64,000 bases of DNA from Escherichia coli (GTDB taxonomy: Bacteria > Pseudomonadota > Gammaproteobacteria > Enterobacterales > Enterobacteriaceae). Shown one piece after another: positions 40,783 to 40,838 of this stretch. A model generated the notes under the pieces. The model saw only the letters and a program-made list of their open reading frames with translations. It searched no databases and had not been told where the DNA came from. Position 1 is the stretch's first letter, and each line of letters starts with the position of its first letter. The position numbers were made by a program, and so were the translations under genes. The DNA lies in NCBI RefSeq assembly GCF_030384885.1, contig NZ_CP128613.1; one strand, written 5' to 3'.

Positions 40783-40838
40783 CCCGAGGTAATCTGAAAA
40801 AGGTGCAAAAGATTGCACCTTTTTCAGATTACCTCGGG
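40783..40838. terminator. Long perfect hairpin, probable bidirectional terminator between convergent yjcF and yjcE
   Basis: 26-nt arm cccgaggtaatctgaaaaaggtgcaa, 4-nt loop, perfect complement ttgcacctttttcagattacctcggg. Confidence 0.65.

Follow-up and report, generated by a model that had tools for sequence, protein, structure and literature searches.

A terminator-like hairpin between yjcF and yjcE of Escherichia coli as a natural quasi-palindrome with signs of arm-to-arm templated correction

The inverted repeat and its genomic setting

The Escherichia coli genes yjcF and yjcE are convergent, and the region between their stop codons contains a perfect inverted repeat of 27+4+27 nt, 58 nt in total and 100% paired in the sequence of the window, by which we mean the whole 64,000-nt stretch of DNA that was analysed. 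The hairpin lies 89 nt past the stop codon of yjcF and 20 nt past that of yjcE, in the convergent setting already described by the original prediction, which was made from the letters alone and which had also announced a perfect repeat with 26-bp arms. The perfect repeat is real, but each arm is in fact 27 nt long, because of the additional pair G40782-C40839. Features and coordinates are collected in Table 1.

Table 1. Features of the yjcF-yjcE region in the window (allele names are defined in the text)
Feature	Coordinates	Strand	Remarks
Variable AT-rich cassette (yjcF and hairpin)	39257-40859		Replaced by lrgB-lrgA-lysR in B2-type strains
yjcF, espX5-like pentapeptide-repeat gene	39400-40692	+	Rare divergent allele
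14-nt insertion relative to K-12	40739-40752	+	Marks the window haplotype
Left arm (yjcF-proximal)	40782-40808		GCCCGAGGTAATCTGAAAAAGGTGCAA; differs from K-12 at 40789, 40793, 40797 and 40798
Outer 15-nt extension of left arm	40782-40796		Pairs with 40825-40839; holds two of the four polymorphic positions (40789, 40793)
Terminator-like core	40797-40824		A5 40797-40801, GGTGCAA 40802-40808, AAGA, TTGCACC 40813-40819, T5 40820-40824
Loop	40809-40812		AAGA; same in 26/26 oriented hairpins
Right arm (yjcE-proximal)	40813-40839		TTGCACCTTTTTCAGATTACCTCGGGC; identical in alleles W, K-12 and C; mirror alleles C' and K' carry changes at 40823-40824, 40828 and 40832
Outer 15-nt extension of right arm	40825-40839		Pairs with 40782-40796
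yjcE, Na+/H+ antiporter gene	40860-42509	-

The length of the repeat is as unusual as had been supposed. The runner-up among the perfect short-loop inverted repeats of the 64-kb window has 13-nt arms, about half the length found here, and the other palindromes of the window that resemble bidirectional terminators have arms of 11-13 nt. It is the outer 15-nt extensions of the two arms that make the stem unusually long. When the segment 40760-40870 was folded as RNA, energies of -54.6 kcal/mol (+ strand, z = -9.5) and -53.4 kcal/mol (- strand, z = -10.8) were obtained, and 0 of 200 shuffled sequences folded as well on either strand; the 58-mer alone reached -49.1 kcal/mol as RNA (z = -14.8) and -33.7 kcal/mol as DNA (z = -16.4). 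A 45-codon open reading frame running across the hairpin (40776-40913) was rejected as a coding candidate; it is not conserved, and K-12 has an in-frame TAG at the equivalent of 40878-40880. A CCTGG site, the target of Dcm methylation, occupies 40839-40843 and overlaps the final base of the right arm; trapped Dcm is reported to stimulate template switching at quasi-palindromes in the laboratory (PMC6357072).

The hairpin belongs to a region that is variable among strains. The AT-rich yjcF island of the original prediction is evident from the base composition, with a GC content of 29-37% across yjcF against 53-57% in actP and yjcE. About 1300 E. coli genomes, including ST131 and O127:H6, lack both yjcF and the hairpin and carry at this place a cassette of lrgB, lrgA and lysR. 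Comparison of this alternative locus (L003, 1882-4000) with 39257-40859 of the window places one junction about 35 nt past the actP stop codon and the other exactly at the stop codon of yjcE. As homology breaks at the yjcE stop, the hairpin, which lies 20 nt inward of the right edge, is part of the yjcF cassette.

This position next to the edge of a variable AT-rich cassette is what could be expected if the hairpin were the remnant of a mobile element (a MITE, a REP-like sequence or a transposon end) that had brought the yjcF island, and a terminal-repeat remnant had indeed been among the original suggestions. In fact, the distribution of the hairpin contradicts it, and we consider such an origin scarcely credible. 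Dispersed copies, as in a repeat or MITE family, were sought among 5426 complete E. coli genomes, and the hairpin was found in 4118 of them, always at a single locus (the median of two BLAST places per genome corresponds to the two strands of the palindrome). No other copy of an arm exists in the window, with up to 3 mismatches allowed and a shuffle expectation of 0; the left edge of the cassette, where a partner would be expected, has none. A phage search returned no copy, and the matches in the plasmid collection are limited to E. coli records of 0.37-4.9 Mb, which are taken to be mislabelled chromosomal DNA. Nothing reached the gathering score in a search of Rfam; matches to miRNA precursors and to STnc families scored about 22-41 bits, compared with gathering scores of 45-90, as expected of any long hairpin, and were discarded. 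An integron attC core (GTTRRRY) is presumably missing from the cassette edge as well, judging by eye. A single locus per genome, with no copy in phages or true plasmids, rules out a MITE, a REP element and a transposon end. It shares with REP/BIME and MITE sequences the condition of an extragenic palindrome at the 3' end of a gene; unlike them, it is single-copy and belongs to no family by similarity or by Rfam match. The REP-type elements present in the window (naRNA4 matches at 3748-3824 and 37099-37170) are unrelated to it.

Insertion sequences were also observed at this locus. In NZ_LR882973.1 (L008, 1233-2008) an IS1 is inserted exactly in the hairpin loop, with the target duplication CAAAAGAT; in strain Z226-5 (L056) an IS1 disrupts yjcF; and in PigCaeca_1 (L054) an IS1 transposase gene stands in place of actP, just upstream of yjcF.

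Terminator anatomy and transcription around the hairpin

The central part of the hairpin has the appearance of an intrinsic terminator on both strands. Its inner stem, GGTGCAA/TTGCACC, has 7 bp of which four are G-C pairs, closes a 4-nt loop and is followed by five U residues in either direction, past the stop codons of the two convergent genes. The free energy of the core stem is -8.7 kcal/mol for the RNA of the + strand and -9.6 kcal/mol for that of the - strand, or -13.9 kcal/mol with the A5:U5 extension. From this anatomy and from its position, the hairpin is predicted to be a bidirectional intrinsic terminator for yjcF and yjcE. The identical core was found in 42 unrelated species, as short palindromes with an A-tract and a T-tract and a mean perfect arm of 12 nt, in a scan that covered species-representative genomes and had no Escherichia among its matches; it is a generic terminator shape that arises convergently. 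The same core, with 27 perfect pairs, was also observed in a Paludibacteraceae MAG (L019, JAQVJY010000001.1, about 167-224), an unrelated bacterium; long perfect extensions of terminator-like hairpins are therefore not unique to the yjcF-yjcE locus.

Like the known bidirectional terminators of convergent E. coli genes, the hairpin occupies a short gap between two stop codons and combines a stem with a U-run on both strands. Moreover, its core has the size of the neighbouring palindromes of the window at 44532-44562 (13-nt arms) and 62997-63026 (12-nt arms), the first of which forms the 3' end of sraL (44423-44563). Unlike them, it has 15 more perfect pairs past the A and T tracts, and the K-12 tables contain no 3' end at this place. 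Elsewhere in the window, a SECIS element was observed at 24072-24126, just upstream of a 559-codon open reading frame (24128-25807).

The hairpin was not flagged by a consensus terminator scan of the window, probably because the scan extends the stem to its maximum, so that the tail it examines is not rich in T. The experimental maps of K-12 are also relevant here. The original prediction had proposed a strong bidirectional terminator: the bidirectional terminator is favoured by anatomy and position, while the word "strong" goes beyond the K-12 Term-seq tables (Adams 2021 supplements), which contain no 3' end for yjcE, for yjcF or at 42815xx-42817xx. The TERMITe supplements have no entry for the site. 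Instead, supplementary file 2 of Adams et al. 2021 places Rho-dependent termination regions a few hundred nt beyond the hairpin on each side, at K-12 positions 4281854 (+) and 4281402 (-), in antisense orientation with respect to yjcF and yjcE. These flanking regions imply that transcription crosses the K-12 hairpin or starts near it and, together with the missing 3' end, that the K-12 allele may be leaky, little used or weakly expressed. The anatomy of the hairpin would also fit the hairpin-pause elements of collision-driven termination, a type that combines a hairpin pause with the collision of RNA polymerases (Ju et al. 2019, as described in bioRxiv 10.1101/2022.10.23.513370).

Alleles of the hairpin in E. 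coli genomes

Perfect pairing is a property of rare alleles, and about 98% of the carriers have a stem with 23 of 27 pairs. This K-12 type, present in about 4050 genomes, is changed in the left arm alone (GCCCGAGcTAAcCTGttAAAGGTGCAA), with mismatches at the four positions that Table 1 lists for that arm; its right arm, loop and spacer are the same as in the window. It retains a perfect inner stretch of 10 bp and has a DNA folding energy of -19.7 kcal/mol. Four other alleles were distinguished. Allele W, to which the window belongs, has a left arm that pairs with the right arm along its whole length and is found in 18 complete genomes. Allele C (23 genomes) has the change TT>AA in the left arm and keeps two mismatches, and allele C' (4 genomes) is half-corrected by the mirror change TT>AA in the right arm. 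In allele K' the right arm pairs throughout with the left arm of the K-12 type. Its sequence was composed from the hypothesis of arm copying before being searched for, and it then turned up, with 100% identity, in 8 complete genomes and on one metagenome contig. K' requires four base changes across 10 nt, and by our own arithmetic a random variant with four substitutions in one arm would match it by chance about once in 1.4 million. In 9 complete genomes, the hairpin is 80-90% identical to both perfect forms.

Every new base in C, C', W and K' pairs with its partner in the opposite arm, complementarity is raised, and the partial products (C and C') always fix the mismatch nearest to the loop. 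Inversion of the hairpin was rejected as a source of these alleles: it would give the loop TCTT and four mismatches, whereas the loop is AAGA in all 26 hairpins compared in the yjcF-to-yjcE orientation (the window and 25 genome loci) and the variant alleles have fewer mismatches. Among the carriers of allele C, the group of ECCRA-119, 3R and EM06-18-14 was observed to have a ghxP pseudogene with an internal stop (L051, L053 and L055, at 3879-4058).

The alleles also differ in their U-tracts. Toward yjcF the K-12 type has U5, and toward yjcE it has U3AA; in W and C both directions have U5, and in K' and C' both have U3AA. Each of the two extremes occurs, but at low frequency, a pattern that points to mutation pressure and not to selection for a stronger terminator; the same differences, on one or both strands, offer natural variants with which the requirements for bidirectional termination can be tested.

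Allele frequencies bear likewise on two functional interpretations of the perfect stem. The first one is that the 27-bp duplex serves at the RNA level, as an RNase III site or 3' stabiliser in read-through yjcF/yjcE mRNA or as a block to antisense RNA. In favour of it, the stem is long and, at -49 kcal/mol, highly stable, it exceeds the approximately 20 bp of duplex RNA that RNase III needs, the K-12 data suggest that transcription passes the hairpin, and the segment 40799-40877 has no difference between W and K while its flanks are 3-14% diverged. Selection for a perfect duplex is nevertheless difficult to reconcile with a population where about 98% of the carriers are mismatched and both perfect forms are rare, and we regard an RNA-level role as unlikely. 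The second one, a DNA operator for a dimeric protein, is suggested by the perfect dyad symmetry, and we find it hardly tenable: 58 bp is far above the typical operator length, the outer arms tolerate mismatches in about 98% of the genomes, two different perfect sequences coexist and no promoter-like site lies nearby. The GGTGCA/TGCACC half-sites presumably do not form an NtrC site either, their order and spacing appearing wrong when judged by eye.

Probable arm-to-arm copying of the hairpin sequence

An indication of how these alleles arise comes from their backgrounds. In a local tree built from 3.2 kb of flanking sequence, on which, rather than on whole genomes, the evidence of recurrence rests, allele C is present on at least 4 haplotype backgrounds, each time beside a sister of the K-12 type, and allele C' on at least 2. 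In the K/C sister pairs (for example 11PC and 268.2; LR-06 and TB4328; CFSAN061761 and ETEC4085) the TT>AA dinucleotide is the sole difference within 300 to 600 nt on each side. The K-12 type (268.2), C (11PC) and C' (SC407) occur together in one haplotype group, with differences of 1-3 nt among its members over 3.2 kb. The locus thus combines a foldable repeat, gain of complementarity, clustered change, recurrence and reciprocity, which are the marks of a quasi-palindrome mutation hotspot. Judging from these sequences, it appears to be a natural quasi-palindrome under arm-to-arm templated correction, of which the window carries one of the fully complementary forms. Arms that are rewritten from each other require intrastrand pairing or an equivalent copy event; the population data, in which each arm is repeatedly rewritten as the complement of the other, therefore give indirect support to the original suggestion of a site prone to form cruciforms or hairpins.

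The explanation that we favour as a whole, and consider reasonably probable, is that of a gene-end terminator hairpin whose perfection is the end state of arm-to-arm templated correction. A core acting as bidirectional intrinsic terminator would serve the convergent genes yjcF and yjcE, and 15 additional bp would lengthen its stem to 27 bp. During replication, a nascent strand that had copied the perfect inner 10 bp could fold back, as in the template switching of Ripley and Lovett, these 10 bp (DNA energy -10 kcal/mol) priming the fold-back. The folded-back strand would then copy the opposite arm over a short or a long tract, converting mismatches into pairs: short tracts would give the half-corrected alleles C and C', and long tracts the two perfect palindromes, W and K'. 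That partial tracts fix the mismatch nearest to the loop is what priming from the inner stem predicts. We infer that copying takes place by replicative template switching and not by repair of an extruded hairpin. According to PMC7202029, which for this point cites Ripley 1982 and Dutra & Lovett 2006, a nascent strand that copies the other arm renders the repeat "perfect or more perfect"; for Proteobacteria, Lavi et al. 2018 (PMC5941160) proposed that template switching maintains perfect inverted repeats, and according to PMC8794818 it creates and maintains RNA hairpins.

The direction of replication would assign the products to the two strands. The GC skew of the + strand of the window is -0.03, which suggests a fork travelling toward lower window coordinates; if so, the corrections of the left arm (C and W) would be of the leading-strand type and those of the right arm (C' and K') of the lagging-strand type. 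The minimum numbers of events, at least four for C (plus W, if it was corrected) against at least three for the mirror alleles, are too small to claim a bias.

Short-patch homologous recombination among existing alleles, instead of intramolecular switching, could in principle produce mosaic alleles. Recombination is frequent in E. coli and the local tree has mixed haplotypes; allele C combines K-12 markers left of 40794 with W markers to the right of it; and since the backgrounds share identical flanks from about -54 to +162 nt, a patch shorter than about 220 nt would leave no trace and could carry the C allele from one background to another. However, for the right-arm variants C' and K' the sole possible donor is the left arm of their own hairpin, so that recombination between alleles cannot explain them. 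Moreover, donors are rare (W in 18 of 5426 genomes), no marker was co-transferred within 300-600 nt in the sister pairs, and the perfect inner stretch is merely 10 bp, below the length needed for RecA-dependent exchange. We thus hold recombination to be very unlikely as the source of these alleles.

The history of the window's own allele is more difficult to establish. Relative to K-12, the window has 74 differences over the 1293 nt of yjcF and 53 over the 1650 nt of yjcE, and its haplotype is marked by the 14-nt insertion of Table 1, for which no second copy was found as a source and which was absent from the metagenome contigs in which it was sought. Between the inner left arm and the last yjcE codons (40799-40877), in contrast to the diverged flanks, window and K-12 have zero differences, which could result from purifying selection on the 3' end of yjcE or from a recombination boundary. 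Three further W-type contigs, reached through the members of a protein cluster, all have the perfect hairpin. One W-haplotype contig (L153, SRR31283600) was observed to have a deletion of 11 nt (GAATAGCCAAT) at the equivalent of 40705-40715, in the 3' untranslated region of yjcF; with the 14-nt indel, this indicates that the spacer is indel-prone. A YjcF peptide scan of species-representative genomes found nothing, and a YjcF protein search returned E. coli only, in two allelic clusters; as YjcF is confined to E. coli, there is no outgroup to polarise W and K.

Under these conditions, the palindrome of the window could be an undecayed ancestor from which the K-12 type lost four pairs by point mutation on the rapidly evolving AT-rich side, the window lineage never having undergone correction, a view compatible with terminator function and with the lack of an outgroup. 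All four differences between W and K lie in the arm beside the divergent 3' end of yjcF, where 11-14 differences per 100 nt are found, and every sampled W-haplotype contig is perfect, with YjcF differences of up to 9 amino acids. On the other hand, the fall of all four changes on one lineage has a probability of about 6% under symmetry (our own arithmetic), and a palindrome of 58 bp would have had to stay intact through a diversification of W that amounts to 9-19 differences in yjcE. W alleles do gain mismatches, one having been acquired in the W-type genome R32_14_1F, and, with templated correction in both directions at the locus, maintenance by correction is simpler. An ancestor that never decayed is for these reasons possible but the less probable history. 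Either the window lineage was corrected early or an undecayed ancestor was kept perfect by the same process; we incline to a window lineage that was itself corrected.

The locus falls into kinds already known, for the element as for the mechanism: it is a gene-end hairpin, and it is a hotspot of quasi-palindrome correction that occurs in nature. Known hotspots of this type (Ripley 1982; thyA, Dutra & Lovett 2006; lacZ QP5/QP6, Seier 2011), as presented in PMC7202029, show multi-base changes templated by the opposite arm, and the yjcF-yjcE hairpin shares with them these changes and the products of both replication strands. Unlike the laboratory hotspots, it is a natural polymorphism in about 4100 genomes and not a set of selected revertants, it lies in a predicted intergenic terminator and not in a gene, and its copied tract spans no fewer than 10 nt and four mismatches. 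It also agrees with the model of Lavi et al. 2018 (PMC5941160), where imperfect repeats are preferentially corrected to perfect ones; that study and PMC8794818 are statistical or cover many loci, whereas here one locus offers the full series of intermediates and reciprocal products on near-identical haplotypes.

A more far-reaching hypothesis, to which we assign a low probability, is that the locus works as a natural multistate switch, in which reciprocal template-switch conversions would toggle the U-tracts of the predicted bidirectional terminator. [quoted passage not shown]

At one locus, natural isolates contain every product that the quasi-palindrome template-switch model predicts: half and full correction, in both directions, recurring on near-identical backgrounds. 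The hairpin may consequently be used as a natural reporter, independent of the engineered lacZ and thyA systems, of how often the process occurs, how long its tracts are and which strand it favours. For annotation and phylogenetics it calls for caution, because clustered substitutions in hairpins are single events and homoplastic. Finally, it offers a concrete account of how long perfect palindromes may originate and persist in bacterial intergenic DNA.
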